Shown here one piece after another: positions 1,835 through 31,653 of a stretch of 34,813 bases of DNA. The stretch's first letter is position 1, and each line of letters begins with the position of its first letter. Origin of the DNA: Candidatus Nanohalobium sp. (GTDB lineage Archaea; Nanohalarchaeota; Nanosalinia; Nanosalinales; Nanosalinaceae); NCBI GenBank assembly GCA_042216335.1, contig JBDGTY010000006.1, positions 26,042 to 60,854 of the forward strand, written 5' to 3'. The notes beneath the pieces were generated by a model that was given only the letters and a program-made list of their open reading frames with translations, did not search any database and was not told where the DNA came from. Both the position numbers and the translations under genes were made by a program.

Positions 1835-4153
1835 TTATATGAATCTGTCTCTGGTCTTTTTTCCTCTGGTTTTGAGCCTCCAGATTAGTGCCGCTGTCCA
1901 TACCAGCAGCAGGAGCAGGTAGACGGAGACTGATAGTATGTTGTTCGACGGTTTCTCGAGTTCGATCCTCATCGGGGCGAAGCCTAGGACATCTCCGTTG
2001 CTGGTGAAGACGAGTGCGTCGTTGCAGACGTCCTGACTTTCCGAGGTTTTAAGCTGGACCTGAACGCTCTTAGCTGAATTTGCCGGTACTGCGTAGGTAC
2101 GGTTTCCGGTGACCGCGCAGTTGCTTCCTCCACGGAACCTGGCTTCTATACCCTGTATGGGACGGTTGGTCGGGTTCTCGACCTGGACTCCCACGTATCT
2201 CTGCGTGGATGTCTGAAGGCTGAGGAACGGAGGAGATTCAACAACGTTGATCCTCTCCCTGTCTATCAGTTCGGATACGTTGACGGTGAACTGCTCGGTG
2301 TCGACGGTCGAGTCACCGAATTCTGCCTCAATCACCTGCGTCATGTTGCCTTCAGATGCATCTTCGGGTATGGTGACGAGCACCATACCATGCCTTGTCT
2401 CGTTCGGCCTGATAACCTGGAAAGTCTTCGGAACAGACGCCCAGCCCGAGTCAAGGCCAACGGTCACGTTTTCCGCGGCGACAGTTCCCGTGTTGTTCGC
2501 CGTGAATTCCACTGAGATCGTGTCACCTTTCTTGGCATCATAGAGATGCCTGGCTAGCGACAGGTTGAGCTTCACGGGCTGAGGTGTCGGCTGGAAGCTT
2601 GGTCCTCCACCCCCTCCAGCAGCTCCACCGCCGGAGCCACCACCGCCTGTTCCGCCACCTCCAGCATCCCGGGAGCCCTGGCCTTCAGAAGGCGACTGGC
2701 CGCCTGAGTTCTCCTCCCCAGTCTGCTTCTTGCCGTAGAGGGTAAAGATGGAGAAGTTCTTTATCTTTCCTCGATGGAATGCATACCTTGGGTTGACGCT
2801 CAGGTTGACCGCCAGCTTCTTCAGGGCATATGAGTCACCCGTGCCGTCGTACTTGTACATCCTGTTCGGCACCAGATTGGACATGTTAAGGTCGGGATAG
2901 CCCAGTCCCAGGTTCCGGAAGCTTGAACTGTTTGAAAGTCCCGTGACCTTGATCCGTGCACCGACCGGCTGGATATCGCTGCTGATGCCCGCGGGCCGTG
3001 GAAGAGATCGTGTGTAGCCCTGGACAGAGACGGACTCCGCCTCACCATATATAGGAGTGCCGGCTATGGAAACATTTCTGAGCTCGGCCGTCGATCTATC
3101 AAGGGTAATCGCAACACCGGAATCCCTGAGAACGACATCATTTAGAGACAGATTCGAACCATGAGCCTCGATACCGTACGTGTTACCGGAGAGATTCGAA
3201 TCCATCATCTCAGCTTCCGCTTCATCCCGTACGCAGACCGCACTCTGAAAGTTATGCATACTGACATCCATCAGTGTAACGTTTTCAGCTGTCACGGTTA
3301 CACCGCATTCGGCTCCGTCGCCGGTGTGACGCGTGTTGTAGAAATCTATGTACGCTCCTGGATTGGTTATCCTGACGCAGTCGCCCGAATCTATCTCCCC
3401 CATCAGGACGGAGGTCGTGTTCCCGGGCGCCTCTCCACAGCCTCTCACTGCTTTACCCCTGGAGAACAGGTTGACTGAGTAAGAGAAGTTCGAGCCCCGA
3501 AGCTTCGGAAGAAGGGCCTGGAAGTTGCATCCCGATGAGTAGCACTTCTCGTAACCTTCGCTTCCTCTCTTCTTGCCGTCTATCGGCGATACGAAGACAG
3601 GGATGGCTTCGTCTCCTTTTCTGTACTTCAGGAGGTACATGGTCGTGGAGCCGGAAAGGTTGGCGTAGGAGGCGTTGTAGTATTTTCCGTTCAGTTTGAT
3701 CTTCTTTCCTGTCTCGAACGTCCTGGCCGGGTTGTCGAACTTCTGGGAGTAGTCCGGGTAGAAGCTCGGGAAAAGCTCTTTGGAGAAAAGCTGGTTCCTC
3801 TCCAGCAGAGTCCTGTTCGTCATATTGTGCAGGCTAGAGGGTTGAATCTCCGTGACGTTGCCGGGCGCGAAGGCGAGGTAGTATCCTCCTCCCTTGACTC
3901 CTTTAAGTTGGGTAGTTAAGACGTTGCCGGTCTGGTTGGCGTTCAGGCTGAGCTTTCCGACCCTGAAACCTGAGAGAGGTTCGCTTCCTCTATCCACGGT
4001 TCCTGATATACCCGTCCATCTGTCGGATATGACGCTTCGGGAGACATCTGTCTGCTTGATGACTCCTGCATAGAAGGTTACTGCCCCGACAGAGACTGAG
4101 AGTACCAGTAAAGCGGTTAGGATGATTACAGGTTTCGAAACTTCTCGGCCCAT
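1835..4153 (-). CDS. Multidomain surface glycoprotein: signal peptide, domain paralogous to the 4188-4853 protein, parallel beta-helix (NosD/CASH-like) region, Gly-rich linker, two Ig/CARDB-like domains, C-terminal TM anchor
   Basis: Start reassigned to MGREVSKPVIILTALLVLSVSVGA (ATG 4153, AT box 24 nt upstream). Beta-helix-type repeats (CVRIT, GVTVTAENVTL, GNTYGIEAHGSNLSL), GGGGTGGGGSGGGAAGGGGG linker, GDTISVEFTANNTG-type Ig strand, and TM (ILSVSVYLLLLLVWTAALIW) plus a basic tail. Confidence 0.85.
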   Translation of the reverse strand: MGREVSKPVIILTALLVLSVSVGAVTFYAGVIKQTDVSRSVISDRWTGISGTVDRGSEPLSGFRVGKLSLNANQTGNVLTTQLKGVKGGGYYLAFAPGNVTEIQPSSLHNMTNRTLLERNQLFSKELFPSFYPDYSQKFDNPARTFETGKKIKLNGKYYNASYANLSGSTTMYLLKYRKGDEAIPVFVSPIDGKKRGSEGYEKCYSSGCNFQALLPKLRGSNFSYSVNLFSRGKAVRGCGEAPGNTTSVLMGEIDSGDCVRITNPGAYIDFYNTRHTGDGAECGVTVTAENVTLMDVSMHNFQSAVCVRDEAEAEMMDSNLSGNTYGIEAHGSNLSLNDVVLRDSGVAITLDRSTAELRNVSIAGTPIYGEAESVSVQGYTRSLPRPAGISSDIQPVGARIKVTGLSNSSSFRNLGLGYPDLNMSNLVPNRMYKYDGTGDSYALKKLAVNLSVNPRYAFHRGKIKNFSIFTLYGKKQTGEENSGGQSPSEGQGSRDAGGGGTGGGGSGGGAAGGGGGPSFQPTPQPVKLNLSLARHLYDAKKGDTISVEFTANNTGTVAAENVTVGLDSGWASVPKTFQVIRPNETRHGMVLVTIPEDASEGNMTQVIEAEFGDSTVDTEQFTVNVSELIDRERINVVESPPFLSLQTSTQRYVGVQVENPTNRPIQGIEARFRGGSNCAVTGNRTYAVPANSAKSVQVQLKTSESQDVCNDALVFTSNGDVLGFAPMRIELEKPSNNILSVSVYLLLLLVWTAALIWRLKTRGKKTRDRFI

Positions 4154-4187
4154 ATACCTTTTTGGCACTTTCCCCGATTTAAATTCA

Positions 4188-4853
4188 TCACTCCAGCTCG
4201 AGGTACATGCTGTAGGACTTTCCACCGTCACCGTACTCACTTTCCGGCAGGATAAGCTGGTAATCCGCGGCAAAACCGTTGAACGCCACCCCATTCCTGA
4301 TAGGGCCTGCGAAGAAGCCGCCGTTACCGTCACTCAGGTATAGAGTTTCCCAAGCCGGATCACCGGTAGAGTTGTACGTGAACGAGGCAAGAGTGTCGTT
4401 GACCGCCCCGGGCTGAAAACCTGAGTCTATGCTGCCGTTCTTCGAAGTGAAGGTCTCAGAAACCTCCTCACTCCCGTTCTTCAGGAAAGGATACTGCTCC
4501 TGCATGTATGATATGTTGCCTGGGCTCCAGTCACCTGAGAAATCCAGAGGCTGGGAAGAAGCGTAGACATACCTCGCATCCAGCAATCCCCACGAGAAGA
4601 ACGGTGACTGAGTATCCTGGCCGACGATGTACTGGGCGGTCACGTTACCGAAGACCCCCGCCCAGGTATCCGAAGGAGCGCGGGGAGCCGATACATCCAT
4701 CTCCATGACGGTACCGGCTCCGATGCTGTCGTTCTCGGGAGGCGTGGCAGAAGTGAAGTTACCTGTGGTATATGTCTTGTTGATCGAGTCCTGTCCCAGC
4801 ACGGGAGAGGCCAGAAGAAAGATGAAGACCAGGAGGGAAACCTTCCGCCGCAT
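4188..4853 (-). CDS. Small secreted beta-rich protein of unknown function (candidate filament/structural subunit)
   Basis: Signal peptide MRRKVSLLVFIFLLASPVLG, no TM anchor, many N-x-S/T sequons. Motifs WAGVFGNVT, DYQLILPE and terminal YSMYLELE. Confidence 0.85.
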   Translation of the reverse strand: MRRKVSLLVFIFLLASPVLGQDSINKTYTTGNFTSATPPENDSIGAGTVMEMDVSAPRAPSDTWAGVFGNVTAQYIVGQDTQSPFFSWGLLDARYVYASSQPLDFSGDWSPGNISYMQEQYPFLKNGSEEVSETFTSKNGSIDSGFQPGAVNDTLASFTYNSTGDPAWETLYLSDGNGGFFAGPIRNGVAFNGFAADYQLILPESEYGDGGKSYSMYLELE

Positions 4854-4894: not shown

Positions 4895-7765
4895 CTAGCT
4901 GACAGCCACGAGGATCTTGCCCTCACCGCTCTCCGGCTCCAGTGCCTTCCCGATGGCTGAAGACCGGCAATCCTGGTTGTGAGACATGATCTCTCTAAGA
5001 GGCTTATCTGAGTTCATCGGATCGATGACCTCACACTGCATACCAACGCCCGGAGTACCGGAAGGCACGATCCTGTCACCTCTCTCGATGTCTCCATTGA
5101 CGTCCGAAACCTTGACAGGAACTTTACCGGTGAGTGCGACAGGGTAGCCGTCTACATCGCTGTTCATGGTCTGGCCTGGATCAGTGGAGACTACTCCGAG
5201 AACCTTTCCATCAAACCGTTCATCCGACCTGACAACTCTGTTGTCCTGTGTAGAGGAAACTGTCACTATTTCACCTTTCTCAAGCTCCTGACTGCTCCTG
5301 TAGTTCTCGGCCAGGTCAGCACCGTTCGTGTAGATGTTGCCATAAACCTTGATGCTGTCGTTGACTGAGACGTTTCCTCGTGTGGAGTCAGTGATGTTGA
5401 AACCGTTCATATCCAGGACTCCACCGCTCTGATGAGGCCCGCTTTTCCCGATGTAGTTGTCGGCAAAGGTCACGGAATCCCTGACAGTTGAACTATCCCC
5501 ATTATTGATTTCCAGCACATCGTTCACGTTTGTGGAATTGATCGAAAGGTTCTGGAGTTCATTTGATGGGTCAGCATCTGCATCCGCGTTATTTGCTGAG
5601 ACATAGTTCTTAACCCATCCTAGGTCGGCCACGGCATCGTTATTGGAATCACTCGGAGTACCGTAGTTGTCGATAACTGTTCCATTGGCATTCGCTCCCT
5701 GGGCGAGAACCTCTGTCAGATTCTGGACCTCGTTCGAAGCCGAAGAATCAGCCGCGTCGTACTCACTGTTGGCCGAATCCCAGCTGACCCCGTTACCGGC
5801 AAGCCCGGAAAGCTCATTACCATCGACTAGGTCGGCGTTCAATCCTGAACCACTTCCCTCGTAGACGCTCAAGGTACCGGAACTGTAGTTCAACTGAGCG
5901 CCAGCAACCGAAGAAGCAAGGCTCAAGCTTACATCCGCATCCGTTCCTGGCAGAACATTGTTGGAAGTACCGGAGAGCCCGTTACCTGCCACGAGATCTG
6001 CCTGGATGGCGTTCACGTTGTCCTGAATAGTGATCGAATCCCTGACAGTCGAGCTGTCACCGCTGTTTATCTCGATTACATCATTTGTACTGCCCGAGTT
6101 CACAGTCAGGTTCTGCAGTTCATTCTCGGGGTCAGAGTCTGCATCAGCGTTGCTCGAACTGCTTACATAGTTCTTCACCCATCCGACATCAGCTACAACA
6201 TTATTCTGACTGTCACTTGGACTCCCGTAGTTCACGATAAGTTTGCCATTCGCGTTATTACCCTGACCAAGCACTTCCGTCAGGTTCTGTATCTCGTTGG
6301 ACTGGGATGCGTCCGCGTCAGCATTGTTGGAGGCCACGTAACCTTTCAGCTGGCTGTAGGTGACCGCTGCCTGTGACTGGGTCGAGTTCGACAGATTAAG
6401 AATCGCTGTACTGCCAGCGTCGTTGCTGACACTCAGTACATTCCCGAGTCCTTGATTGTCTGTATCAGCCTGGAAGTCATCCCTTACAGTAACTGTATTA
6501 CCGTTCTGGATGGTGATGGAGTCGTTCCTGCCATCTGTATTGTTGCTTACTGTCAGGGTCTGGTCATCGGAGCCTGCCTGGCTTATCTGATTATCGACGT
6601 ATGTCTTATTGACGGCGTCGCCACCACTGTTCGGAGCAGGGATTCCTGTAATCCTGAAACCACTCATATCAATATTTGTATTTGCAACAGCTCCCTCAGA
6701 AAGAACCTGTGCCAGCGTCTGGTTGTCGGTACCGTTTTCATCGGTAAAGGAGGTATCAGCCCCGTTCTCAATCGGGATAGTCACAATCTGACCGGAACGT
6801 GTCGTGGCCTGAAGGTTCTGGTCGTCTGTACCGTTTGGAACGTAGTAATCCTTGATGGCGGCGTCCTGACCATTCGTTATCTCAATCTGGTGAGAAACAC
6901 TGCTTGCCCCAGAAGGAGCTGAAGCATTCACTGAACTCAGATCCTGATTATCGGTATCCTGCTCGTAGGCATCATCCACAATCACATAATTACCTTCACT
7001 GATCGAGAGATTGTCATCTACACCTGAAATGTTCGCAGTAAATGAAAGAGTCTGGTTGTCGCTGCCACCTGACACAGAATCAACATAAGACTTGTTTACC
7101 GCGTCTCCCGGACTATTCGCGACCACGTTCTGAAGCTGGTGGCCGTTCAGGTTGATGCTCTGGTTCGCCAGAGCACCGTAAACGAGAACCTCGGAAAGAG
7201 TCTGATTATCGGTATCGGCCTCGAAGTTGTCATCCAGAGTAATCGAACTGTAAATCGTGCTGCTGTCCCCGCTATCCAAGTTGATCACGTCATCGATACT
7301 GGCAGAGTTAATAGTAATATTCTGTAACTCATTTGCGGAATCCGAGTCACCATCCGCATTGTTCTGGTCAATATAGTTTTGAACGTACCCTACATCAGCC
7401 ACAGCATCTGTGTTAGAATCCGAGACATTGCCGTAATTTTCGATAATAAGACCTCCAGCACTGTTTCCTCTACCCAACACAACCGAAAGATTAGCGCCCG
7501 TACGATCATCCACATAAGCCTTAGTGGCTGCTTCATGGGGAAGAGTAGGGCGGGAAAGATTGTAGATAGTATTTCCATGCAGGTTCAGATCCGTAGAGAC
7601 AGTCATATTGTCCAGAGTGGACTGTATCTCATAGCTTCCGGATATCACACCGTTCTGAAGAGTAATCGAGTCAGGGGTTAAGGTAAGTGACTGAGCGGTA
7701 ACCGGGACTGCCAGAAGCCCAATCACGCCCAGAAAAACTGCAAATCTAGAGAGACGAATTTTCAT
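4895..7765 (-). CDS. Secreted tail-fibre/trimeric-adhesin-like repeat protein with C-terminal peptidase G2-like intramolecular chaperone domain
   Basis: Signal peptide. Neck/stalk motifs AATKAYVD, DAVNKSYVD, DAVNKTYVD and fibre motif GSGSGLNADLVDG. Internal ~90-aa repeats. C-terminal GADLAENY...GVVSTDPG...PVALTGKVPVKV...GDRIVPS...IGKALE domain. Confidence 0.8.
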   Translation of the reverse strand: MKIRLSRFAVFLGVIGLLAVPVTAQSLTLTPDSITLQNGVISGSYEIQSTLDNMTVSTDLNLHGNTIYNLSRPTLPHEAATKAYVDDRTGANLSVVLGRGNSAGGLIIENYGNVSDSNTDAVADVGYVQNYIDQNNADGDSDSANELQNITINSASIDDVINLDSGDSSTIYSSITLDDNFEADTDNQTLSEVLVYGALANQSINLNGHQLQNVVANSPGDAVNKSYVDSVSGGSDNQTLSFTANISGVDDNLSISEGNYVIVDDAYEQDTDNQDLSSVNASAPSGASSVSHQIEITNGQDAAIKDYYVPNGTDDQNLQATTRSGQIVTIPIENGADTSFTDENGTDNQTLAQVLSEGAVANTNIDMSGFRITGIPAPNSGGDAVNKTYVDNQISQAGSDDQTLTVSNNTDGRNDSITIQNGNTVTVRDDFQADTDNQGLGNVLSVSNDAGSTAILNLSNSTQSQAAVTYSQLKGYVASNNADADASQSNEIQNLTEVLGQGNNANGKLIVNYGSPSDSQNNVVADVGWVKNYVSSSSNADADSDPENELQNLTVNSGSTNDVIEINSGDSSTVRDSITIQDNVNAIQADLVAGNGLSGTSNNVLPGTDADVSLSLASSVAGAQLNYSSGTLSVYEGSGSGLNADLVDGNELSGLAGNGVSWDSANSEYDAADSSASNEVQNLTEVLAQGANANGTVIDNYGTPSDSNNDAVADLGWVKNYVSANNADADADPSNELQNLSINSTNVNDVLEINNGDSSTVRDSVTFADNYIGKSGPHQSGGVLDMNGFNITDSTRGNVSVNDSIKVYGNIYTNGADLAENYRSSQELEKGEIVTVSSTQDNRVVRSDERFDGKVLGVVSTDPGQTMNSDVDGYPVALTGKVPVKVSDVNGDIERGDRIVPSGTPGVGMQCEVIDPMNSDKPLREIMSHNQDCRSSAIGKALEPESGEGKILVAVS
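5455..7490 (-). repeat. Degenerate protein-level repeats within the fibre gene
   Basis: Three copies of LxxVLxxGxxAxGxxIxNYGxxSDSxxxxVADxGxVxNY...NADxDxDxxNELQN...GDSST...DN, and two copies of DNQTLxxVLxxGAxANxxI...DAVNKxYVD...DxQTL...GN. Confidence 0.85.
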
Positions 7766-7802: not shown

Positions 7803-8009
7803 ACCGAGACACGGCGGCAGACTACAGCACAACAAAGCCACAGAAAGTGCAGGAAGAAAGACTTGATTCTCAAAAATTCAATCATGAGGGCTGAAGATTC
7901 TGTAAACTTTCTGAAGGATTTTTATCTGCTCAAGGCGTCCCTTATGGTCGAATAATCGTTAATCTCAGAAGCCCAGTTATTTTTTATTGGGAGGCGGGAA
8001 AAGGGATGT

Positions 8010-10529
8010 ATGAAGAAACTGGCAGTGATCCTAGGAATCCTGCTCTGCGGGACGGCCGCGGCACAGGTCACAGTCAAACCCAACATAGAGTTTGTCCTGC
8101 CCGATACGAATACACGGGTAACGGTAGGCGAATCTTTCGGGGCGCAGAACGTCACGGTAAACAATGACTCGCTGCAGATGGGGCACAAAAACTTCTCCTT
8201 CACCCAGTACAGAAACGGAACGTACAAACCACTTACGATAAAAATCGCGAGCTATGACTTCACTTTCAGCAGCTACCCTAAGGTTTTGATGCAGTTCAGT
8301 GCCAAATCAGGCGCCAGCGGAGACAAGTTCGTATACGCCAACATCTCAAGTCTGCCTGACCTCCCATCTGCCTCAGGAACGGATACGGAACCGGTTTACA
8401 GGCTTTCATCCGGAAGTGATACCTCTCAGTCCTTAGAAGGCAACATAGCTATAAACGAGACTTTCTCCAGTGGGGCAGTTTTCACTCTGGAGGCCGGTGT
8501 TCCGGGAAGCTTCGACGAGAAACAGAACACCACTGACTCGAAGGGGCAGACATCAACCGGAGGTAGCTCCGGCGGGGGCGGGGGAAGCTACTCAGGGCCA
8601 ACTCAACAGCAGTTAAACAATATAAATGAGACATTGCAGGAGTTGAAGGAGCAGCTTGACAACGCTTCGGAGTACATCGATTTCAGCAGTAGCAGCATCA
8701 ACGCGGAGCTAAAGCCAGGCGAGTCAAAGAGAACCAGCATAACACTTGTCAACAACCTGAACCGATCCCAGACGTTCAATATCTCGACCACCAGCGATGT
8801 AAGGGAATACATCAAGGTCCAGGATTCCCTCACAGTAGCGCAGGGAGAGAGCAAGAAGCTCGATGTTAAGATCACTATCCCTTCGACCGAGTTGCCGAAG
8901 AGTGTTTCCGGCAGCCTGAAGTTCAGCAGTTCACTCGTCGACAAGGCCAGTATCCCTGTGAATATCGATGTCTTGCCTCCGGATCGCCAGACTCTGAGTC
9001 TCAGCCTGAACCCATTGTTCAACACTGTAGCCCCGGGCGAGACTCTCAGGTTCGAGGCCAAGCTGCAGAATGAGGGTTACACCGGCACGATCAACGTGAC
9101 CACGGATATAGAGCTGAAGGATCCCGAGACAGGGAACGTTATAGCCAGGAAAACCGTGACCGCCGAGGTAGGAGGCTCCAAGACTGACGTAGTGACGATA
9201 GAGGTGCCGGAGAACGCCACGAAACAGCAGTACACTCTGGAGGGAACATCAACGTATACAGGCATCAACGCCTCGGAACAGGCTACCTCTATAGCACCTG
9301 TCACGGTCGCGACACCGTTCTGGAAGAGGAAAGTCGCCGGAGTCACATACAGGAACGGCGCGATAGCCTCAATCATCCTGCTGATCCTGGGGATCGGAGG
9401 CTACTACGGATACAGATACAGACAGGCCATCATCGCGAAGAAGCGACGCTACGACGAAGACATAGACATGGAAACTATCCCAAGCGGCGGAGAAGACCAG
9501 GCCTACGTAGGTCAGATCGCGGAGAGAGGTAAGAGAACATTCGTGGAGATGGATGACCTGATGACACACGCGATGGTTGCCGGAGCCACAGGATCCGGTA
9601 AAACCGTTACAGGACAGGTCATGGCCGAGGAAGCACTCAAGGAAGGAAAGAACGTCATCGTCCTCGACCCTACAGCCCAGTGGACCGGATTCCTCCGGGA
9701 AAACACAGACGACAGCATGTTCAGCGAATACGATAAGTTTGACATGTCTAAGAGTGATGCACAGGCCTTCGACGGCAACATCCGGGCCGTAGAGCCAGGA
9801 GAATCCATCGACATCACTCCTTACCTGAACGAGGACAGCGATATTGACGGACAGATCATAATCTTCAGCCTCCACAAGCTCGACAGCAAAAATATCGACA
9901 AGTTCGTCAAAGAGACCATCCAGCAGGTGTTCGACGCCAACCTGCCGGAGCAGAACCATTTAGAGACCATGATAGTATACGACGAGGTTCACAGGCTGCT
10001 CGACGAGTTCGGAGGGAGTGGAAAAGGACTGAAACAGGTCGAGAGAGGTGCAAGAGAGTTCAGGAAGTGGGGTATCGGCATGTTGCTGCTTTCCCAGGTT
10101 ATCAGCGACTTCCCGCACGAGGTCAGGACCAACATCGGCACAACAGTCCAGATGCGTACAGAGGACGAGAACGACCTTGACAGGATGAAGGACAAGTTCG
10201 GCATGGACACAGTCAAATCCATCGCCAAGGCTGAGATCGGGTCAGGCATGCTTCAGAACCCGGAATATAATCACGGTCGGCCATACTTCGTCGACTTCAG
10301 ACCGCCGCTCCACAGCCCACACAGGCTCAGCGACTCCGAACTCGAGAAATACGAGCAGTACAACAAGATGATCGATCTGCTCGAACAGAAAGTCGATAAG
10401 ATGAAAAGCTCCGGCAAGGACACCTATGAACTGGAGAGCGAGATTCAGCTGGCGCGTAAAAACCTGAAGAAGGGAAGCTTCAACCTCGTAGAGACATACA
10501 TTGAGGAACTGAAGGAAGAACTTCAGTAG
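8010..10529 (+). CDS. Type I membrane protein with a large extracellular Ig-like region fused to a cytoplasmic FtsK/HerA-superfamily (DUF87-like) ATPase
   Basis: Signal peptide MKKLAVILGILLCGTAAA, Gly linker and two Ig-like domains. TM GAIASIILLILGIGGYYGY (~9357-9413) followed by RYRQAIIAKKRR. Walker A GATGSGKT (9582-9605), VIVLDP strand, Walker B MIVYDEVH, REFRKWG Arg-finger region and LLSQ motif. Confidence 0.9.
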   Translation: MKKLAVILGILLCGTAAAQVTVKPNIEFVLPDTNTRVTVGESFGAQNVTVNNDSLQMGHKNFSFTQYRNGTYKPLTIKIASYDFTFSSYPKVLMQFSAKSGASGDKFVYANISSLPDLPSASGTDTEPVYRLSSGSDTSQSLEGNIAINETFSSGAVFTLEAGVPGSFDEKQNTTDSKGQTSTGGSSGGGGGSYSGPTQQQLNNINETLQELKEQLDNASEYIDFSSSSINAELKPGESKRTSITLVNNLNRSQTFNISTTSDVREYIKVQDSLTVAQGESKKLDVKITIPSTELPKSVSGSLKFSSSLVDKASIPVNIDVLPPDRQTLSLSLNPLFNTVAPGETLRFEAKLQNEGYTGTINVTTDIELKDPETGNVIARKTVTAEVGGSKTDVVTIEVPENATKQQYTLEGTSTYTGINASEQATSIAPVTVATPFWKRKVAGVTYRNGAIASIILLILGIGGYYGYRYRQAIIAKKRRYDEDIDMETIPSGGEDQAYVGQIAERGKRTFVEMDDLMTHAMVAGATGSGKTVTGQVMAEEALKEGKNVIVLDPTAQWTGFLRENTDDSMFSEYDKFDMSKSDAQAFDGNIRAVEPGESIDITPYLNEDSDIDGQIIIFSLHKLDSKNIDKFVKETIQQVFDANLPEQNHLETMIVYDEVHRLLDEFGGSGKGLKQVERGAREFRKWGIGMLLLSQVISDFPHEVRTNIGTTVQMRTEDENDLDRMKDKFGMDTVKSIAKAEIGSGMLQNPEYNHGRPYFVDFRPPLHSPHRLSDSELEKYEQYNKMIDLLEQKVDKMKSSGKDTYELESEIQLARKNLKKGSFNLVETYIEELKEELQ

Positions 10530-10564
10530 GCTTTAACAACGAGCCTGACGTACAGGTGGATTAG

Positions 10565-11599
10565 ATGGGAATACTCAACCCCTTCGGCAGTGAGGAAGAG
10601 ACTGAAAGCGTTTCAGATGCAGTCTCACAGGCGCAGAACCAGGTAGACGAGGAACTGGACGAATCCAAAGAGGAATGGGAGGCACAGAGCCCCCAGCAGG
10701 GTCAGACAGGCGAAGAAACAGACATGATCGCCGAGGTACAGAAGCTGAAGGCGAAGCTGGAGGCACTAGACGAGAAACAGGAGACTATATCCGCGAGGAA
10801 CGACCGGTTGTCTGAAAACATCGGAAGCATGCGTGAGAACATGAAGGACGTCCAGCAGGATGTCCAAGAGGCTGTCGCTGCAGCGCAGAAATCCTCCGAC
10901 CTTGTGGAATCGCTTGAGCCTCAGGAAATCGAGCAGGAGCTCCAGCAGCGTACTTCGGAGCATGAGAAGATAGAGGCGCAGGTGGAGAACCAGCAGGAGA
11001 TGATCCAGGAGCTGCAGAACCAGATACAGGATCTGCGGCAGGACTTCGAGCAGATAGGTTCTATAGAGACAGTGAAGCAGTTCAGGGACGAGGCCGAGCA
11101 GAAGCTTGCGACCGTCCGGAAGCTTGAGGAACGGGCACAGAGCCAGGCGAACAAAGTGGAGGACATATTCCATGAACTCCAGCAGAAGTCCGCCCGGATA
11201 GAGAAACTGGAGGACCAGCAGGAGGAACTGAGGGAGGAGGTCTCGGAGAACGCACGGAACATCGACGACCTCGAAGTCAAGTTTCAGGGACTTCCAAACG
11301 AGGACGAGTTCAAGGAGTTACAGGACAGTTTCAAGGAGAAAGTCGAAGAGATCGACGCTGTTTTGCCGGCAATGGAGGAGGCCTTCGACGATATGGAAGT
11401 CAACGAGATGTCAAAGGAGAACCGGAAGATTGCCAGGAAGCTGAAGGAGATAGAGGACAAGATAGAGGAAGTCGACCAGCAGGTCATGGAACAGGAAAGA
11501 GATGACGAAGAGGTAGACGAGCTAAGGAAAGCGGTTAAGAAGAACACGGAGCTTCTTGTGGATATAGTCGAGAGGCTGGACGGACACCGCATCCTGTAG
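10565..11599 (+). CDS. Long acidic coiled-coil protein
   Basis: ~290 aa of heptad-like E/Q/K-rich sequence with no TM or signal peptide, and a short hydrophobic N-terminus MGILNPF. Confidence 0.85.
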   Translation: MGILNPFGSEEETESVSDAVSQAQNQVDEELDESKEEWEAQSPQQGQTGEETDMIAEVQKLKAKLEALDEKQETISARNDRLSENIGSMRENMKDVQQDVQEAVAAAQKSSDLVESLEPQEIEQELQQRTSEHEKIEAQVENQQEMIQELQNQIQDLRQDFEQIGSIETVKQFRDEAEQKLATVRKLEERAQSQANKVEDIFHELQQKSARIEKLEDQQEELREEVSENARNIDDLEVKFQGLPNEDEFKELQDSFKEKVEEIDAVLPAMEEAFDDMEVNEMSKENRKIARKLKEIEDKIEEVDQQVMEQERDDEEVDELRKAVKKNTELLVDIVERLDGHRIL

Positions 11600-16264: not shown

Positions 16265-18271
16265 ATGGCGATACTCCCTGACTCCGAACTGAAGAAACTC
16301 GTCAACCAGAAAGACGCAGTCTACGTCGACGACGGCCCGGAAATCGATGAAGATCTCCAGATCGGCCCTTCAAGCATGGATCTCAGGATGGGATACGAGT
16401 TCGGAGTCCTCAACACCCGGAAGATCGAAAAAGTCGACACAAAAAACATGGAAAAGTACTCGGACTACATGAAAAATGAGAAACACTCCGCAGAAGAAGG
16501 AGTAGTCGTCCATCCCGGAGAATTCATCCTCGGATCTACACTTGAAACAGTAAACGTGCCCAGCAATCTCGTCGCCCGCGTAGAAGGACGCAGCAGCTAC
16601 GGAAGGCTTGGCATAATAGTCCACGCTTCTCTACCTTATGATGAGCAGATTCTTCACTGGAACGAAGAAAACGGCTATAGATTCCTTGAGATAGGGAAGA
16701 TAGTTGAGGAAGAAGTGGAAGGTTATGCTGTTTCATTTAATCCTGAAACCAAGGAAGTAAGTAAGCATCAGATAACTGATTTTATAGAAAATCCTCCAAA
16801 AGATATCTACCGAGTTGAGACAGAGAAAGGTCGTGAAGTACGTATAACGGAGGATCACAACCTATTCACCCTAAGTGGAGAGGGTGATATCGAGAAAGTG
16901 AAGACCCAAAACGTCGAAGGAGAGAGAATCGCAGTCCCGCGTAAGATTGAGACCGGAAACAAAGTTCCAGAAGTAGATTTAGTTGAACTTTTCAGAGAGA
17001 AAGGCCTTGAAGAGGATGTGATGGTTTCCTCCCAAGGTATAGTCCAGAAAGCCAGTGTCGAAAACAAAGAGATGGAAAGATACTATGCTGAAGAGGATAC
17101 GGCACCTCTAAAATCTGTAGACAAAATTAGCGGAGAAGCACAACTGTCTTTCAAGCAGAGCACGGCACAGTTCAATCAGAAACTTAAACTAACACCTGCA
17201 TTCGCCTATACAGCCGGGTTCTTCCTAGCAGAAGGAGCACAGAGAAGAAAGCAACTTAACTTTGCAAACAAGAACACGAAATTCCTGGAAAAAGTCAAGG
17301 ATTATTTCAGGCAGTTCGATGTCGGTTTCTACGAGAAGGAAGATGAAAACAACTGTACATACCTGACCGTCAGTTCGGCCTTTTTCTCCAAAGTCTTCGA
17401 GGCACTGGACCTAGCCGACAAGCGAATCGGAGATAAGCTCCTAGATATGCCAGAAGAATGTCTGGAACAGCTCTACCAGGGTCTGATCGATGGAGATGCA
17501 GCAATCCGAGGAGATAGAGTGGAATACTATACCTCCAGCAAGGATTTAGCCAGCGACATATCCTATCTATGCTCAATGCTTGGCAAGGTCTGCAGTATAA
17601 CTTACCGGGAAAGAGAAGACGGTAGAGACGAGTACCGACTTGAGATAAGAGAAAAACCTCATAAACTGCTACAAGGCATCCCAGTACCTTCAAAGCTCTT
17701 AAGACACGTCCGAAGCGAAATAGGGCTCTCCATGAAAGAGGTGGCATCCGAACTAGGCTACAGCTCCAAGAGCAGCATCTCAAACCTTGAAAACAAGGAA
17801 TATGAGACAGTCAGGAGAAAAAATCTTCAAAAAATCTCCCAGTACTACTACAAAAGAGCAGAGGACAAAGAGGCTAAACAAAAGGCAGAGAAACTGAGAC
17901 AGATAGCCAATTCAGATCTCCTATTCGACCAAGTAGAAAGGGTGGAAAAGATAGCAGAGAAACAGCCAAACTACGACCTCGAAGTCCAGCCAAATGGACA
18001 GAAAATCGAGAACTTTCTCGGAGGGCATGGAGGCATCTTCCTGAGCAACACAGCAGGCTACATAGACCCCGGATTTGAGGGCGACATCACTCTGGAGATA
18101 CAGAACCTTGGAAACGCACCAGTAAAGCTCTATCCCGAGGATCGTGTCTGCCAGATAGTCTTTGAGACCATGACAGAGGAGGCAGAGAGCCCGTACGGCG
18201 AGAAAAAAGACACAAAATACATGGGGCAGACAGGAGCGACCGGATCGCGGCTTGAAGAAGAGAAGCGGTAG
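16265..18271 (+). CDS. dcd: dCTP deaminase containing an intein
   Basis: QIGPSSMDLR, PGEFILGST, EGRSSYGRLGIIVHA|TAGYIDPGFEGDITLEI, RVCQIVF and KYMGQ. Spliced product 194 aa. Confidence 0.96.
   Translation: MAILPDSELKKLVNQKDAVYVDDGPEIDEDLQIGPSSMDLRMGYEFGVLNTRKIEKVDTKNMEKYSDYMKNEKHSAEEGVVVHPGEFILGSTLETVNVPSNLVARVEGRSSYGRLGIIVHASLPYDEQILHWNEENGYRFLEIGKIVEEEVEGYAVSFNPETKEVSKHQITDFIENPPKDIYRVETEKGREVRITEDHNLFTLSGEGDIEKVKTQNVEGERIAVPRKIETGNKVPEVDLVELFREKGLEEDVMVSSQGIVQKASVENKEMERYYAEEDTAPLKSVDKISGEAQLSFKQSTAQFNQKLKLTPAFAYTAGFFLAEGAQRRKQLNFANKNTKFLEKVKDYFRQFDVGFYEKEDENNCTYLTVSSAFFSKVFEALDLADKRIGDKLLDMPEECLEQLYQGLIDGDAAIRGDRVEYYTSSKDLASDISYLCSMLGKVCSITYREREDGRDEYRLEIREKPHKLLQGIPVPSKLLRHVRSEIGLSMKEVASELGYSSKSSISNLENKEYETVRRKNLQKISQYYYKRAEDKEAKQKAEKLRQIANSDLLFDQVERVEKIAEKQPNYDLEVQPNGQKIENFLGGHGGIFLSNTAGYIDPGFEGDITLEIQNLGNAPVKLYPEDRVCQIVFETMTEEAESPYGEKKDTKYMGQTGATGSRLEEEKR
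16628..18049 (+). mobile_element. Intein (474 aa) with LAGLIDADG homing endonuclease and XRE-type HTH
   Basis: Starts SLPYDE, block B ITEDHNLF, endonuclease motifs AGFFLAEG and QGLIDGD, HTH GLSMKEVASELGYSSKSSISNLE, block F NYDLEV, ends FLSN|T. Visibly more A/T-rich than the exteins. Confidence 0.93.
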
Positions 18272-20885: not shown

Positions 20886-23102
20886 CTAGAGCCGGCCGTT
20901 CATCTTCCTGTAGCCGACCTCCGCAAGGAAGACGATCAAAGCAGCGAGTAATAAGAAGGGTGCGAGCGAAACCTGCTGCCTGACCGTTCGGTCGATCTCC
21001 TCTACCTCCTCATTTATCTCACCGGCGTTTGAGAAGTCGAAAATGCTTCCTCCTGTTTTCTGGGCGATCTTCGAGAGCTTGTCCTGGTTCAGGCCGATCT
21101 TTCTGATCTCCGGATGGTAGTTGTAGGCGTACGTCTCGTTCCTCCAGGAATGTATCCCGAGACCGGGTTTTTCCAGTTCACCAATGTATAGGTCGCGTGA
21201 CTGCCGGGTCAATCCCTTTAACTGGTAGGAGGCACTTACTTCGGGCTTCTCTGGCCTCGATGCATCGGATACGTCCAGCCATCTGTCCTTCTTCCTCTGC
21301 GGGTTGCCGACCGTCCAGGAGACCGTTCTTGAGATCAGGCCAGGATCGGTCTTGACTGTTCTGTCGAGGTTCTTGCCGCCTGCGGAGAACGCTGCTACCC
21401 TGCCGAGTCCGTATCTCCAGGTGGAGAGGAATTCCTTGCCGTTCGAGCCGGAGACCAGTGTATTCGCCGATCTCTTCGTCTTCACAGGTTTGAAGCCTGT
21501 TGTCGCCCCGTCAAGCTCCAGTCCCTCGGTGATGAAGTGGTTCGGGTTCACCACTGCGATAGGTGTGTACTGTGATTCTCCACCGCCCGAGCCGAAACGG
21601 AATTTCAGCCTACCGGCCTCCTTGTTCTCGAGGTAGTAGCCACCAGTGGTTTTGGCGATGTCCTTGAGTAGAGGCTTGTTCGGATCCTCTCCCATGCCGA
21701 CGGTTATCAGCTTGGCCTCCATCGCATTGGCCTCGGTACGTGTCTTGAATGCGATGTTCTGCCTGTTGTACACTCCTATCCTACCGTCGCTCAGCATCAC
21801 GACCGTGTCGTTCTTCTCTGCCAGCGAGGCTGCACCTCTGATACCCAGATCGTGGAATGATGGTCCAGAAGGCGAGATCTTTGAGATCTTCCTCTTTATC
21901 TCCTTTCTGCTGTATGCAAGGGATTTGGGTTCGGATACAAGGTATGATTCACGGTTGTAGGCGACTACACCGACCTCGTTACTCTTTTTGAGAGTATCGA
22001 CCAGAGAGTAGGCGATCCTGAGAGACTCCTTGCTTACTTTGCCCTGCTCACCGACCTTGAAGCATACGTCAGTGTTCTTGGATTGGCAGCTTCCTGTGCT
22101 GGCGGAGATATCGATCAGTATTATGACTCGGGCGCCTGCTTCCTCATCTTCTTTTTGATCTTTCTGCACGGGAAGATAAGACGGAATCCGCTCCATTGAG
22201 CCGGTGTACATCAGGCCGTTTCCGTCGGCTATGTAGTTCCTGAGCCTCTGACTGTCCAATGGTTTCTTCATGATTACTGTGTAGTAGTCTTCAAGGTTTT
22301 CCGGCAGGTTCTGCCTGTTGTCGACCTCGTAGAACTTCTTCAGGTTCTGTTCAAGTATTCCGGTCTTGCCGATGGCGAGTATCTCCGGTTTCTCCCTGAC
22401 CTCAACTGTTTTGTAGTACCTGTTGTTCCTCGTAAAGATGTCGTTCGATGTGATCGCGGCCTGGATCGTGTGCTGTCCTTTCAACTGGAACTTCCGGTTG
22501 AAGCTGTAGGAATCATTGATTTTGCCGGTGTATATGACTTCTCCGTCGAGCGTGATGTTGACGGGGACCGGTTTCTCCCTTGTCGAGCTTATCTTGACCT
22601 GGAATGTGTTCTGCGCTCCCAGGACTGTTGTGAAGGGACCTTCTATCCTGACCGCTGCTTCAACCCGGGTTTCTGGCCTGTAGATGGATACAGTGGCGTT
22701 CTTCCTCTTCGCTGTTTTCACGAGTTCTGAAGTCTGTTCTTCGGTCTGTCCGTCGGTGACGAGGAGGTTGTAGCTTCCCTGTTCGATGGTTGAGGCTGCC
22801 TGTGAGAAGATCCTGGAGTTGTTGCCCTGTATGAATACTGTTCTGGTTCCGTCGACAGGTACGTTTTTCTCCAGGACCCTGGCGGATGTGGTATTGTCGA
22901 TGAGGATATTGATCTTCTGCTCCGTCGTGGCCTGTTTCACCTGTGTTATGGCCGGGCCTGCTGCGGCTGCGACCAGAAGTACTATCACAAGTGTTCTGGT
23001 TCCTGCCACCTTCCTGGTGTAGTTTTCGCCTCGCGGGATGAGTTTCAGGGCTAGAAGCGCTAGTGGAAGAAGCACCAGGAATTCCGGGTTCTGCAGCATC
23101 AT
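20886..23102 (-). CDS. Membrane-anchored VWA domain protein (with Ig-like and GATase-like segments)
   Basis: Two N-terminal TM helices, MIDAS ILIDISAS...MLSDG, degenerate first VWA (ILIDNTTS...LVTDG), WRYGLGRVAAF and C-terminal TM. Confidence 0.88.
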   Translation of the reverse strand: MMLQNPEFLVLLPLALLALKLIPRGENYTRKVAGTRTLVIVLLVAAAAGPAITQVKQATTEQKINILIDNTTSARVLEKNVPVDGTRTVFIQGNNSRIFSQAASTIEQGSYNLLVTDGQTEEQTSELVKTAKRKNATVSIYRPETRVEAAVRIEGPFTTVLGAQNTFQVKISSTREKPVPVNITLDGEVIYTGKINDSYSFNRKFQLKGQHTIQAAITSNDIFTRNNRYYKTVEVREKPEILAIGKTGILEQNLKKFYEVDNRQNLPENLEDYYTVIMKKPLDSQRLRNYIADGNGLMYTGSMERIPSYLPVQKDQKEDEEAGARVIILIDISASTGSCQSKNTDVCFKVGEQGKVSKESLRIAYSLVDTLKKSNEVGVVAYNRESYLVSEPKSLAYSRKEIKRKISKISPSGPSFHDLGIRGAASLAEKNDTVVMLSDGRIGVYNRQNIAFKTRTEANAMEAKLITVGMGEDPNKPLLKDIAKTTGGYYLENKEAGRLKFRFGSGGGESQYTPIAVVNPNHFITEGLELDGATTGFKPVKTKRSANTLVSGSNGKEFLSTWRYGLGRVAAFSAGGKNLDRTVKTDPGLISRTVSWTVGNPQRKKDRWLDVSDASRPEKPEVSASYQLKGLTRQSRDLYIGELEKPGLGIHSWRNETYAYNYHPEIRKIGLNQDKLSKIAQKTGGSIFDFSNAGEINEEVEEIDRTVRQQVSLAPFLLLAALIVFLAEVGYRKMNGRL

Positions 23103-24763
23103 CTGAGTTCACCTCTGCGGGAAAGATACGTCATCTCCAGTGCTCCGATCAATGCGAGCAGTGCCGCGATGTACTTCCGGGCCGGATCCCTACCAGGGCT
23201 GTCTCCTACATCCGTCCTTGAAGTGGCAGTGTTGATATTTGGTGAGGACTCCTCCGGGTTGAGGAGATTGGCCGCATACGTCGGCTTGCCCCTGTAAAAA
23301 CCTGTCCCGGGGACAGTGGTGTAGCCCCTGATCTTCCGGCCGCGATAGGTGACGGAGTTCCCGAAGGTGTGCTGCGTGCCTGTCTCCAGGTTAAGCTCGC
23401 TTCCGGTCTTCAGGTCTGTCATCCTTCCGATCACCTGTTTCCAGAAGATTGGGTAGTTAAGCTTCTGACCGAAGCTTCCATCATCGACGTTGTAGAGCAG
23501 TACATCCTCATCCTGAGACAGCACCAGTGCCTCCTCAGGCTCCGCCAGGGATGTACCGGTGACGTCGTAGCCAGTTACAGATGAGTTGAAGCTGGTCGCC
23601 ATCCCTGCCGAAACCCTGACCTGTGTAGTGTAACTCCCAGAAGCATTTTCCACAGGCGCGAACTCGGGCAAGTCTTCTCTGTTCTCAAGTATAATTTTAG
23701 CGCCAGCCTTCAATTTCTGCCTCAGCTTGGTTTTTCTTTCCTCTGTCAGCTCGAACTCCTCTCCTATGAAGTAGACGTCAGCCTCACTGATGCTTTCATG
23801 ATGAGTGTAGGAGGTCGAGTTGATGAGTTCGATAGCCGTCCTGAAGTACCTGCTTTCCTCTCCGAGGTACGCGACCTTTATGTTCCTGTTCTCCGGCATC
23901 GAGACGTACAGCTTGTTATCCAGTGAGAACTCATCCATCGGAAGGGAGAGCTCCTTGGCGCCACCCGAGAGATCTATTGAAACTGTCTCCGATGAGAGAG
24001 GTGGAATGACCACTTTCCTGTTCTCCCCCGGCTTCTGCAGTTCGATGGTCCGATTCCGGTCGATGAAGTTCCGGATTGTGACCTCGGCCCTCCCGTTCTC
24101 TACCCTCAGATCAGTGAACCCGTGACTGTTCCTGTGGTCGATATCCATGACTTTGACCGTCCTGTCAGCCGCAAGCTCGTTAAGCACAGAATCCAGGTCT
24201 CCGCCACCCGTATGATCCATGTCAGATGCGATCACAACTTTTCCTCCGAAGTTCGAGGCCAGCTGGAGGGCTGAGACAAGGTCTGTGCTCGAGGCCGAGT
24301 TCTCGTGGCCCTGTATGAAGCTGCGCGCCCTCTCCGTCGAGGCATCCCGCAACTCGATCTCAGGGCTTCCTGATACAGTGATAATCGTGTTCCTGTTGCC
24401 GAGGTGCTTCAACGCAAAGTTTTCGACCTGCTGTCGGTTGTCATGCATGCTCGCAGAGGTATCAAGGAGGATAACGGTTTTCCCATCCGATTCAAGGCCG
24501 GAAACCAACGGATTGGCGATCGCCAAGGCCGCTAGAGAGATAAACAGTATGTGTAGCAACAGAAGACGGTTTCTCTTGAGCGCCTGGAGAGCGTTCTGTA
24601 TCTTTCCCTTTTTCTGATCCTCGGAGAAGAACGCCATCGACGGCATGACCTCTTCCTCAGGCTTCGGCTTCACCAGGTAGGAGATCAACAAAGGGATTAT
24701 CCCGAGAAGGGCGAGGAGGCCTGCTGGGTTGACGAAGTTCCGGGTTATCGCTTCAATCATCAC
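23099..24763 (-). CDS. BatA N-terminal + VWA domain membrane protein
   Basis: FVNPAGLLALLGIIPLLISYLVKPKP...MPS BatA signature, ALAIANP, MIDAS ILLDTSASM, IASD, ANLLNPEES and C-terminal TM. Confidence 0.9.
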   Translation of the reverse strand: MMIEAITRNFVNPAGLLALLGIIPLLISYLVKPKPEEEVMPSMAFFSEDQKKGKIQNALQALKRNRLLLLHILFISLAALAIANPLVSGLESDGKTVILLDTSASMHDNRQQVENFALKHLGNRNTIITVSGSPEIELRDASTERARSFIQGHENSASSTDLVSALQLASNFGGKVVIASDMDHTGGGDLDSVLNELAADRTVKVMDIDHRNSHGFTDLRVENGRAEVTIRNFIDRNRTIELQKPGENRKVVIPPLSSETVSIDLSGGAKELSLPMDEFSLDNKLYVSMPENRNIKVAYLGEESRYFRTAIELINSTSYTHHESISEADVYFIGEEFELTEERKTKLRQKLKAGAKIILENREDLPEFAPVENASGSYTTQVRVSAGMATSFNSSVTGYDVTGTSLAEPEEALVLSQDEDVLLYNVDDGSFGQKLNYPIFWKQVIGRMTDLKTGSELNLETGTQHTFGNSVTYRGRKIRGYTTVPGTGFYRGKPTYAANLLNPEESSPNINTATSRTDVGDSPGRDPARKYIAALLALIGALEMTYLSRRGELR

Positions 24764-31107: not shown

Positions 31108-31601
31108 ATAAACTCAGACCAGTCCACGTTTCCATAATCATTTTCTCTTTCATCAAGTTTCTCTTTGATCTCTTCTACAGTTTCCTCAACCGACTTCTCC
31201 GTCGTATCTATTTCTATAACAGTTTCCTGGTTTTTGACGGCCTCTGTGAGTATGATATCTATTTTTTCGGATTCTACGTTTTCCCTGACCTTGGAATCGG
31301 GATACGGCCGGCTTGAAAGTCTTTCCTTCAGTATGTCCGGACGGCACCTCAAAACTATACAGACATCTGCCGGAAGGTGGTGGGCCAGATGACCTTCAAC
31401 GACAGTATCGTCGGAGAAGATTTCGCCCTCGAGTTCTTCCAGCATCTCGCCTATCCTGACTTCTCTTTCACCATCAACTTCCCTGCCTATATCTTTTTCC
31501 TCAAGAAACTTCGTTAGGTCTACTACTTCAAAACCTTCTTCTAATTTCTCTGAGACTGTTGTTTTGCCTGTTCCCGGCGTTCCTGTGAGGGCGATTACCA
31601 T
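31104..31601 (-). CDS. Adenylate kinase, AK6/hCINAP (Fap7) family
   Basis: TGTPGTGKT, VEGHLAH, VLRCRPDILKERLSSRPY and KVRENVESE motifs. Confidence 0.93.
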   Translation of the reverse strand: MVIALTGTPGTGKTTVSEKLEEGFEVVDLTKFLEEKDIGREVDGEREVRIGEMLEELEGEIFSDDTVVEGHLAHHLPADVCIVLRCRPDILKERLSSRPYPDSKVRENVESEKIDIILTEAVKNQETVIEIDTTEKSVEETVEEIKEKLDERENDYGNVDWSEFI

Positions 31602-31653
31602 GACTGAACTTTTAATCGGAGGGCATAAAAGCTTGAAACCAGCCTACCTAACT

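Follow-up and report, generated by a model that had tools for sequence, protein, structure and literature searches.

Proteins of the SPEARE type are the leading candidates in the open question of how DPANN symbionts adhere to a host and trade material with it. As described by Hamm 2019 (PMC6642349), SPEARE proteins are mostly extracytoplasmic, with a transmembrane segment near the C-terminus and a conserved intracellular C-terminal part; relatives were reported from Woese-, Aenigm- and Micrarchaeota and from Altiarchaeales, and short versions of 655 and 717 amino acids (aa) were already known. La Cono 2023 (PMC10266531) gave this intracellular domain a new annotation, a VirB4/TraG-like ATPase with a coiled coil after it, disputed the protease, laminin-G and toxin-like regions ascribed to SPEARE ectodomains, and described SVXNc_0300 and BNXNv_0298, giants of 9409 and 8880 aa with about 75 immunoglobulin (Ig) domains and a short paralogue after them. 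The two papers disagree on the identity of the cytoplasmic domain, and the size of SPEARE-type proteins (up to about 9400 aa) hampers their study. Here we describe a compact, complete alternative, an 839-aa protein encoded, uninterrupted by stops, by an open reading frame (ORF) at 8010-10529 (+) of a 34,813-nucleotide (nt) stretch of Candidatus Nanohalobium sp. DNA (contig JBDGTY010000006.1, positions 26,042 to 60,854), which as a whole is called the window below.

Within the FtsK-HerA superfamily, reportedly the subject of a 2004 paper by Iyer et al., VirD4, FtsK and EssC are tethered to the membrane by N-terminal transmembrane helices, and those HerA-clade motors that have been characterised work on nucleic acids. 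CedB and CedD of the Sulfolobales are membrane-anchored HerA-clade ATPases, CedD being genetically required for DNA import; the Ced proteins have a cytoplasmic domain resembling the VirB4 N-terminal domain (NTD) and work with CedA/CedE channels (PMC11868833).

Set beside these systems, the 839-aa protein can be assigned with high confidence, as to both family and architecture, to the short members of the SPEARE, or giant-surface-protein, family of DPANN archaea. An earlier reading of the window from its letters (the sequence-only reading) had implied that an ATPase fused through a transmembrane helix to an ectodomain was a novel architecture, but this fusion is already in print as the SPEARE family (Hamm 2019; La Cono 2023). 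What is new here is that the ATPase is placed in the HerA clade, that the conserved core is delimited, and that a compact natural member and a DPANN-wide coiled-coil partner are added. A HerA-like motor with a conserved partner across DPANN phyla speaks against the two labels in print, a restriction enzyme and a classical type IV secretion system (T4SS).

A Compact Member of the SPEARE Family

As in the SPEARE proteins described so far, the bulk of the 839-aa protein is predicted to be extracellular, its one transmembrane segment lies on the C-terminal side, and the conserved module is the cytoplasmic C-terminal part. It differs in being only 839 aa long and in that Pfam detected no serine protease, laminin-G/adhesion or toxin-like region within residues 1-446. 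Such regions are variable across the family; since they were not found, the protein is filed as a short member by its conserved module. With SVXNc_0300 and BNXNv_0298, as reported, it shares a signal peptide, an Ig-like ectodomain, a transmembrane helix, a secretion-type ATPase and a C-terminal coiled-coil/helical tip, but the window has one short gene with no adjacent paralogue, and the ATPase called VirB4/TraG-like there is nearer HerA here.

Among 70 genomes of the phylum, 35 contain a match at expect value (E) <= 1e-5, 27 of them a strong one (E < 1e-40). The aligned part always runs from residues about 140-240 to 838, and in most of these relatives it forms the C-terminal end of open frames of 1276 to 9433 codons. 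Identity amounts to 55-59% (residues about 165-838) with the C-termini of nanohaloarchaeal frames of 1447-4085 codons, and to 34-44% with frames of up to 9433 codons. The closest relative, P0003 (856 aa, on a 106-kb contig), is another short form with the same architecture end to end (59% identity, 100% coverage), identity falling from 80% in the cytoplasmic domain through 50% in the Ig stem to 37% in the tip. Next come giants of 1447-4058 aa (71-73% in the cytoplasmic domain), and a quick maximum-likelihood tree of 66 cytoplasmic domains groups the 839-aa protein with the nanohaloarchaeal giants (SH-aLRT 96).

The family reaches well beyond this phylum. A pattern-plus-tblastn scan of species-representative genomes returned at least 560 relatives, from which 80 loci were kept; they come from bins labelled Nanohalo-, Micr-, Woese-, Pace-, Alti-, Aenigmat- and Nanoarchaeota, and align from residue about 130-310 to the end. 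When a profile of the cytoplasmic domain was run against 1.84 billion representatives, 433 clusters were found at E <= 1e-30, the best 150 of the 433 having lengths of 429-6253 aa. The conserved core consists of a Gly-rich linker, two Ig domains, the transmembrane helix, KKRRY, the ATPase and a helical tail; only the tip varies. The fraction of majority residues is 0.70 in the ATPase, 0.57 in the tail, 0.42 and 0.46 in the first and second Ig domains, and 0.30 in the transmembrane helix.

The fusion of ectodomain, transmembrane helix and ATPase, as the sequence-only reading had proposed it, is real. In a second assembly, made from a public salt-lake run and possibly of the same sample, a 4473-nt contig spans 7700-10804 with zero indels. 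P0003 carries the full-length architecture, and a transmembrane-like segment lies 71-98 residues (median 77) ahead of Walker A in 86 of 88 homologues, these being the ones with enough N-terminal sequence among the 89 obtained by a word-indexed search (8000 scored candidates). Consequently, the suspicion that an assembly chimera or a frameshift joined an exported protein to an unrelated ATPase is effectively refuted, its residual probability being negligible, and an artefact unique to one assembly is excluded.

Between the second assembly and the window there are 19 substitutions, every one of them within 10268-10738, a stretch that takes in the end of the ATPase gene and the acidic start of the partner gene downstream; over 10775-11560 the second assembly has the partner gene split among many short contigs. 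Both features suggest strain-level variation.

Some giants are followed directly by a short paralogue (genomes G050, G052, G040, G041, G023 and G042; loci L038, L039). The giants, where their frames are complete, have 7869-9433 codons, the paralogues have 623-677 aa with an Ig, Ig, transmembrane and ATPase set of their own, and the coiled-coil gene comes next wherever the downstream region was examined. Such pairs would allow mixed rings of both subunits. The short paralogues beside the two largest frames (L038: 9992-11860; L039: 9992-11875) match DUF87, HerA_C and, weakly, an Ig-like N-terminal model, with no match to PF03135, the VirB4 N-terminal domain CagE_TrbE_VirB, at E <= 0.1. The VirB4 argument of La Cono 2023, as its account of the giant proteins gives it, is thus not reproduced, the correspondence of these paralogues to the genes of that paper being uncertain.

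Classification of the Cytoplasmic ATPase

All the ATPase motifs listed by the sequence-only reading are present, namely Walker A (GATGSGKT, 525-532), Walker B (MIVYDE, 654-659), the block REFRKWG in the Arg-finger region (682-688) and the SQ motif (695-696). No substitution of K531, D658, E659, R682, E683, R685, K686, S695 or Q696 occurs in 26 full-length homologues or in the 66 cytoplasmic domains. The same reading's assignment to the HerA/FtsK superfamily also holds, with HerA closest by both profile and fold.

When the profile of the 66 cytoplasmic domains was compared with PDB sequences, the top eight matches were HerA-type chains, from 4d2i (E 4.7e-14) to 8ziq (4e-9), followed by DotL (6e-5), FtsK (1.2e-4), VirB4 (0.022) and TrwB (0.025). 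The model of the cytoplasmic domain has a predicted local distance difference test score (pLDDT) of 92.5 and a predicted template-modelling score (pTM) of 0.91, and with it Foldseek returned HerA-type chains at ranks 1-27. An all-against-representatives structural search placed HerA 4d2i first (Z 25.8, root-mean-square deviation 2.8 over 255 residues), ahead of the DndH C-domain (Z 23.9), VirB4 (4ag5, 22.7), TrwB (19.5), FtsK and TcpA (17.4 each) and EccC (17.3).

Family models agree with this ranking. In the 839-aa protein, HerA_C and DUF87 are above their Pfam cut-offs, and over 66 family members both match in 66/66, compared with 64/66 for TrwB_AAD_bind, 62/66 for ResIII, 60/66 for AAA_10, 45/66 for FtsK_SpoIIIE and 1/66 for P-loop_TraG. 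The T4SS-DNA_transf and TrwB_AAD_bind matches are confined to the Walker A region (475-571), and that of FtsK_SpoIIIE covers only the P-loop and is below cut-off (19.4 vs 24 bits). Pfam detected in the 839-aa protein neither a VirB4 N-terminal domain nor an FtsK gamma domain or all-alpha domain. No curated NCBIfam model was reached: the best, CedD, scored 43.4 bits against a cut-off of 600 (it is the best NCBIfam match in 66/66 family members, at about 43-47 bits), and the HerA models scored 21-26 bits against cut-offs of 800-970. Among the PADLOC models, mad8 and those for HerA-type defence cover nothing beyond the ATPase core, and no defence partner gene was detected nearby.

Given these HerA-first ranks in profile and fold, and the lack of any curated NCBIfam model reached, the ATPase family is a branch of its own within the FtsK-HerA superfamily, nearest HerA, with a transmembrane helix replacing the HAS barrel. 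It shares the RecA-like core fold of archaeal HerA (Sulfolobus, 4d2i), with Walker A, Walker B, Arg-finger and sensor motifs, but is membrane-anchored and bears an ectodomain. No HAS-barrel family was matched in Pfam, and the about 25 residues between the transmembrane helix and the first core strand (497) leave no room for one. Unlike canonical HerA, the gene has no nurA, mre11 or rad50 gene among its neighbours, which are the coiled-coil gene, aRF1 and genes for secreted proteins, and its NCBIfam HerA scores are far below cut-off. VirB4/VirD4 proteins (TrwB, TcpA, DotL), FtsK and EssC-EccC have the same superfamily fold (Z 17.3-22.7), but their profile similarity to the family is weak (E 6e-5 to 0.03), they have two to five transmembrane helices rather than one, and the large N-terminal region of the 839-aa protein, predicted to be exported, sets it apart from all of them. 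The comparison with CedB and CedD, as these are described in PMC11868833, differs again in the ectodomain, in a gap between transmembrane helix and ATPase too short for a VirB4-NTD-like domain, and in the absence of a conserved channel neighbour from the 80 loci.

A Conserved Coiled-Coil Partner Gene

Directly after the ATPase gene lies a gene for a coiled-coil protein (Table 1). In 15/15 nanohaloarchaeal loci (the window included), a homologue follows the ATPase gene immediately or almost immediately, and a hidden Markov model (HMM) built from the nanohaloarchaeal sequences has a downstream match in 60 of the 80 DPANN loci (E 1e-23 to 1e-131), a count that a broader HMM left unchanged. Of these 60 matches, 59 are on the same strand as the ATPase gene and 46 within 100 nt. 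When ORFs of at least 100 aa were clustered over the 80 loci, conservation was confined to the ATPase gene (80 loci) and the coiled-coil gene (60 loci), the next clusters being antisense shadows of the former. In the phylum set of 70 genomes, strong matches to both genes occur in 26, an ATPase fragment alone in one, weaker coiled-coil-like matches alone in four and neither gene in 39; as kin genomes are not independent, these counts should be read as a pattern, not as statistics. Together, the ATPase gene and the coiled-coil gene make up a conserved two-gene unit. Literature searches on the family and its architecture gave no relevant papers beyond Hamm 2019 and La Cono 2023. We did not find the partner gene described in the main-text passages of these two papers that were consulted (their supplements are outside this comparison), and the section of the latter on giant proteins is silent on it.

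About 230 residues form the conserved core of the partner family, and G87 and P119 in it are invariant. Its Pfam and PDB matches are generic coiled coils only, no PspA, Vipp1 or ESCRT-III chain being among its 60 best PDB profile matches, and 27/30 of its nearest Atlas clusters are unnamed DPANN families. The Atlas structure search also lists a PspA/IM30 cluster (TM-score 0.43/0.60), but on the partner sequence PspA_IM30 (PF04012) reaches only E 0.39 (9.2 bits), less than on other coiled-coil genes of the genome, and Snf7 (PF03357) has no match. A short N-terminal motif, hydrophobic and then basic, MG[LIV][LF], occurs in 17/56 partners vs 13/337 control ORFs, the controls themselves including partners. 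Short N-termini that are hydrophobic and then basic are typical of peripheral membrane binders such as PspA and Vipp1. No sign of a fusion between the two proteins was seen, the partner HMM having no match at E <= 1 in the C-terminal extensions of 90 homologues.

Partner homologues at four loci (L031-L034; G049, G066, G065 and G040) carry C2H2 zinc-finger motifs at both ends, which are unusual among archaeal proteins; zf-C2H2 is matched in 4/15 members. A clade labelled Altiarchaeota (L053, L062 and L105) consists of members of about 1450 aa with a C-terminal extension of about 200 aa. At L053 and L105 the partner is absent downstream, its place being taken by ORFs of about 283 and about 800 aa, and at L062 the contig ends after the ATPase gene and is uninformative; the coiled-coil partner may have been replaced in this clade.

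Possible Role and Competing Explanations

The most likely role for the 839-aa protein would be that of a translocation or remodelling motor at the site of contact with the host. Like other FtsK-HerA ATPases, the ATPase would form a hexameric ring directly beneath the membrane, so that the cell surface would bear six Ig stems, each with its tip; the tips of relatives comprise thousands of residues of adhesin-like repeats. The ectodomain would bind the host cell and, at the contact site, the ring would hydrolyse ATP and move a polymer, either host DNA inward or protein outward. Passage through the membrane would be needed, for which a single, poorly conserved transmembrane helix would be insufficient alone, and the coiled-coil partner would serve as a scaffold or adaptor on the helical tail. 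We put forward this chain of events, from binding through transport, tentatively, as plausible but short of probable. Family, architecture and contact-site translocation taken together form the best explanation overall, to which we would give an even chance.

Several observations weigh against contact-site translocation, above all at the step where a polymer would have to cross the membrane. The transmembrane helix is the least conserved segment of the family and has only 3% polar or charged residues; with the lowest conservation and near-pure hydrophobicity, it is an anchor and not a conserved pore. Neither a polytopic membrane protein nor any other third gene is conserved nearby in the 80 loci, implying that the channel, if any, is encoded elsewhere or does not exist. 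The continuous pore that the sequence-only reading had envisaged is weakened by these data; its contact-triggered translocase would still be a reasonable interpretation, and the filament-assembly motor that it had offered in addition gained no specific support. The partner is missing from 20 of the 80 loci, 12 of which have at least 1200 nt of downstream sequence (the other eight have less). As VirB4 and the DndH C-domain are nearly as near in fold as HerA, the fold alone leaves the substrate unfixed. Finally, the family is absent from many near-complete nanohaloarchaeal genomes, among them one of the same genus (G047) that is 99% complete on a single contig; this patchy presence implies that the symbiotic lifestyle can do without the family, which is thus an accessory rather than a core device.

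The lack of a channel would be accounted for if the helix were a plain anchor and the ring acted on the coiled-coil partner itself, by assembly, disassembly or pulling, and so held, clustered or remodelled the membrane beneath the adhesin, where symbiont and host touch, without pumping DNA or effectors. The coiled-coil gene is the sole conserved neighbour, its motif enrichment and the PspA/IM30 cluster among its structural matches are in keeping with such a role, and the conserved helical bundle at the end of the ATPase is explained by no fold match. However, the profile results above give no PspA or ESCRT-III sequence support, the best PDB matches of the partner being generic coiled coils, and it is established that characterised HerA-clade motors act on nucleic acids. 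We regard a scaffold-remodelling or anchoring motor as unlikely, though deserving of attention. Somewhat less probable is the T4SS-like 'straw' of La Cono 2023, in which a VirB4/TraG-type ATPase drives effectors into the host with the surface protein as conduit. The likeness of the fold to VirB4 (4ag5), TrwB and TcpA speaks for it, as do the TrwB_AAD_bind and AAA_10 matches in most members, but by profile the family is about nine or more orders of magnitude nearer HerA than DotL, VirB4 or TrwB, and P-loop_TraG is matched in a single member. PF03135 is absent from the 839-aa protein just as from the L038 and L039 short paralogues, no VirB3/6/8-type neighbour or other T4SS part is conserved across the 80 loci, and a bona fide VirB4, beside a PrgI-family gene, is encoded separately in this genome. 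Moreover, the 839-aa member has no long stalk, and tandem Ig domains would have no lumen.

Hamm 2019 proposed that DNA is taken up and degraded by an intracellular type III restriction-enzyme domain. The 839-aa protein does match ResIII (residues 516-666, E 1e-8), as do most family members, but that model describes the P-loop helicase/ATPase portion of Res subunits, and the match, from which SPEARE has the 'RE' of its name, falls on the core from Walker A to Walker B. HerA_C and DUF87 outscore it, and the fold resembles that of HerA. No nuclease family was matched anywhere in the 839 aa (Pfam, NCBIfam), and the label, which thus does not fit this HerA-like domain, is likewise rejected in La Cono 2023. 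A restriction enzyme is very improbable; DNA import without a built-in nuclease is covered by contact-site translocation.

A broader proposal is that the two-gene unit is the minimal core of a contact machine specific to DPANN archaea, neither T4SS nor Ced, which we consider doubtful. If true, it would mean that a HerA-type hexameric motor is hard-wired through the membrane to a host-binding surface structure, and that motor and membrane-associated coiled-coil scaffold together move DNA or protein, or remodel the membrane, at the junction of symbiont and host. In that case, no natural version would be smaller than the 839-aa form or lend itself better to biochemical and structural work. The confidently modelled cytoplasmic domain, with or without the partner or DNA, provides concrete, testable constructs.

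Topology and Domain Layout

The coordinates of the features are collected in Table 1. The 839-aa protein is predicted to be a type I membrane protein, with an exported ectodomain, one transmembrane anchor and the ATPase in the cytoplasm. A Kyte-Doolittle scan (19-residue window >1.4) found just two hydrophobic segments, residues 1-24 and 442-469. The former has a KK n-region (MKK), a hydrophobic core and AAA ahead of Q19, so that the N-terminus looks like a Sec-type signal peptide; an N-terminal hydrophobic stretch is also present in 31/49 homologues that start with M and have long ectodomains. All 14 N-X-S/T sequons are within residues 47-420 and none in 472-839; in 2000 shuffles of the ectodomain, 6.4 ± 2.2 sequons were obtained, and a fraction of 0.0015 reached 14. 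The ectodomain is probably glycosylated. The T-rich box upstream of the start codon is a possible promoter for a short-leader or leaderless transcript.

Table 1. Features of the ATPase gene, its product and the partner gene (positions in the window)
Feature	Coordinates	Strand	Basis or remark
T-rich TATA-like box TTTTTTATT	7980..7988	+	22-30 nt 5' of ATG; read from sequence
Signal-peptide-like N-terminus, residues 1-18	8010..8063	+	hydrophobic segment 1-24
Variable beta-rich tip domain, residues 23-167, sequon-rich	8076..8510	+	strands predicted, pLDDT 30-65
Gly/Ser-rich linker 168-198, then single helix 199-216	8511..8657	+	pLDDT <50 over 170-198
Ig-like domain 1, residues 223-321	8676..8972	+	model pLDDT about 80-89; conserved core
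Ig-like domain 2, residues 328-433	8991..9308	+	model pLDDT about 74-90; conserved core
Single transmembrane helix, residues 449-469 (modelled helix 447-479)	9354..9416	+	hydrophobicity and model
Basic juxtamembrane KKRRY and linker to ATPase	9417..9497	+	conserved KK(R/K)RY, P491, G501, A504, E505
HerA-clade P-loop ATPase domain, residues 497-765	9498..10304	+	Pfam, PDB profiles, fold matches
Three-helix C-terminal tail, residues 775-838	10332..10523	+	helices in both models
Partner gene: acidic cytoplasmic coiled-coil protein, 344 aa	10565..11599	+	35 nt downstream of ATPase stop

The whole-protein AlphaFold2 model, made with 26 aligned sequences, has a mean pLDDT of 75.6. Together with the scan and the sequons, all N-terminal of the transmembrane helix, it bears out much of what the sequence-only reading had listed: an exported N-terminal region, a Gly linker (GGSSGGGGGS, about residues 184-193) and two Ig-like domains, modelled as beta-sandwiches at pLDDT about 80-90. 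Other items needed amending. The short coiled coil corresponds to one helix, predicted at low confidence; the inventory of the ectodomain was right as to its Ig domains but omitted a third, beta-rich and poorly modelled domain at the tip (residues 26-165 in the model); the positive-inside bias exists but is modest (six K/R in the 14 residues after the transmembrane helix vs four in the 12 before); and the C-terminal hairpin is indeed helical but has three helices, not two (775-800, 806-821 and 824-838, with G822, F824 and Y830 invariant). This tail lies outside the region covered by the fold matches.

The tip domain is shared with P0003 alone; it matched no Pfam family and gave no usable feature match in the Atlas, and its structural matches all had a TM-score <0.5. 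The linker, modelled as disordered, has a Gly-rich counterpart at the equivalent alignment position in homologues. Ig-like domain 1 has weak Pfam matches (Ig_VWA7, FixG_C), and its Foldseek matches are tandem Ig/ASH-type domains; Ig-like domain 2 is within the aligned region of all relatives, which begins at about residue 200-230.

Genomic Context

The source genome (1.02 Mb, 96% complete) also contains a four-gene run on contig C31 (L026: 681-5384), with overlapping stops and starts and VirB4 last. This VirB4 (766 aa) matches P-loop_TraG, CagE_TrbE_VirB and AAA_10 and is preceded by a PrgI-family protein (284 aa), the other two ORFs of the run having no family; the run is a separate T4SS/Ced-like cluster.

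In the window, the genes for aRF1, dCTP deaminase, an RFC subunit, Lhr and TatD place the ATPase gene on an archaeal chromosome. Divergent from it are ORFs at 4895-7765 (-), 4188-4853 (-) and 1835-4333 (-). The first (956 aa) has a signal-peptide-like start and repeated acidic N-A-D-A-D...NELQN(L/I)T blocks and belongs to no Pfam family, the second (221 aa) has no Pfam match, and the third (832 aa) has an NPCBM_assoc (Ig-like) domain. None of these upstream secreted proteins matched the ectodomains of the 80 loci, so there is no sign of detached pieces of a giant ectodomain.

Inteins with a LAGLIDADG homing endonuclease interrupt the genes for dCTP deaminase (16265-18271, +) and the RFC subunit (31564-34752, +). 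A third intein-bearing gene of the genome, on contig C28 (L025: 4955-8368, -), encodes a 1137-aa protein with DUF87, the HerA central domain, its intein having LAGLIDADG and helix-turn-helix parts; it adjoins TruD and glycosyltransferase genes, and no ectodomain module was detected in it. At 20886-24763 (-), the window also holds, side by side, genes for a BatA-domain and a VWA-domain protein (738 and 554 aa), an unrelated membrane/surface cluster.

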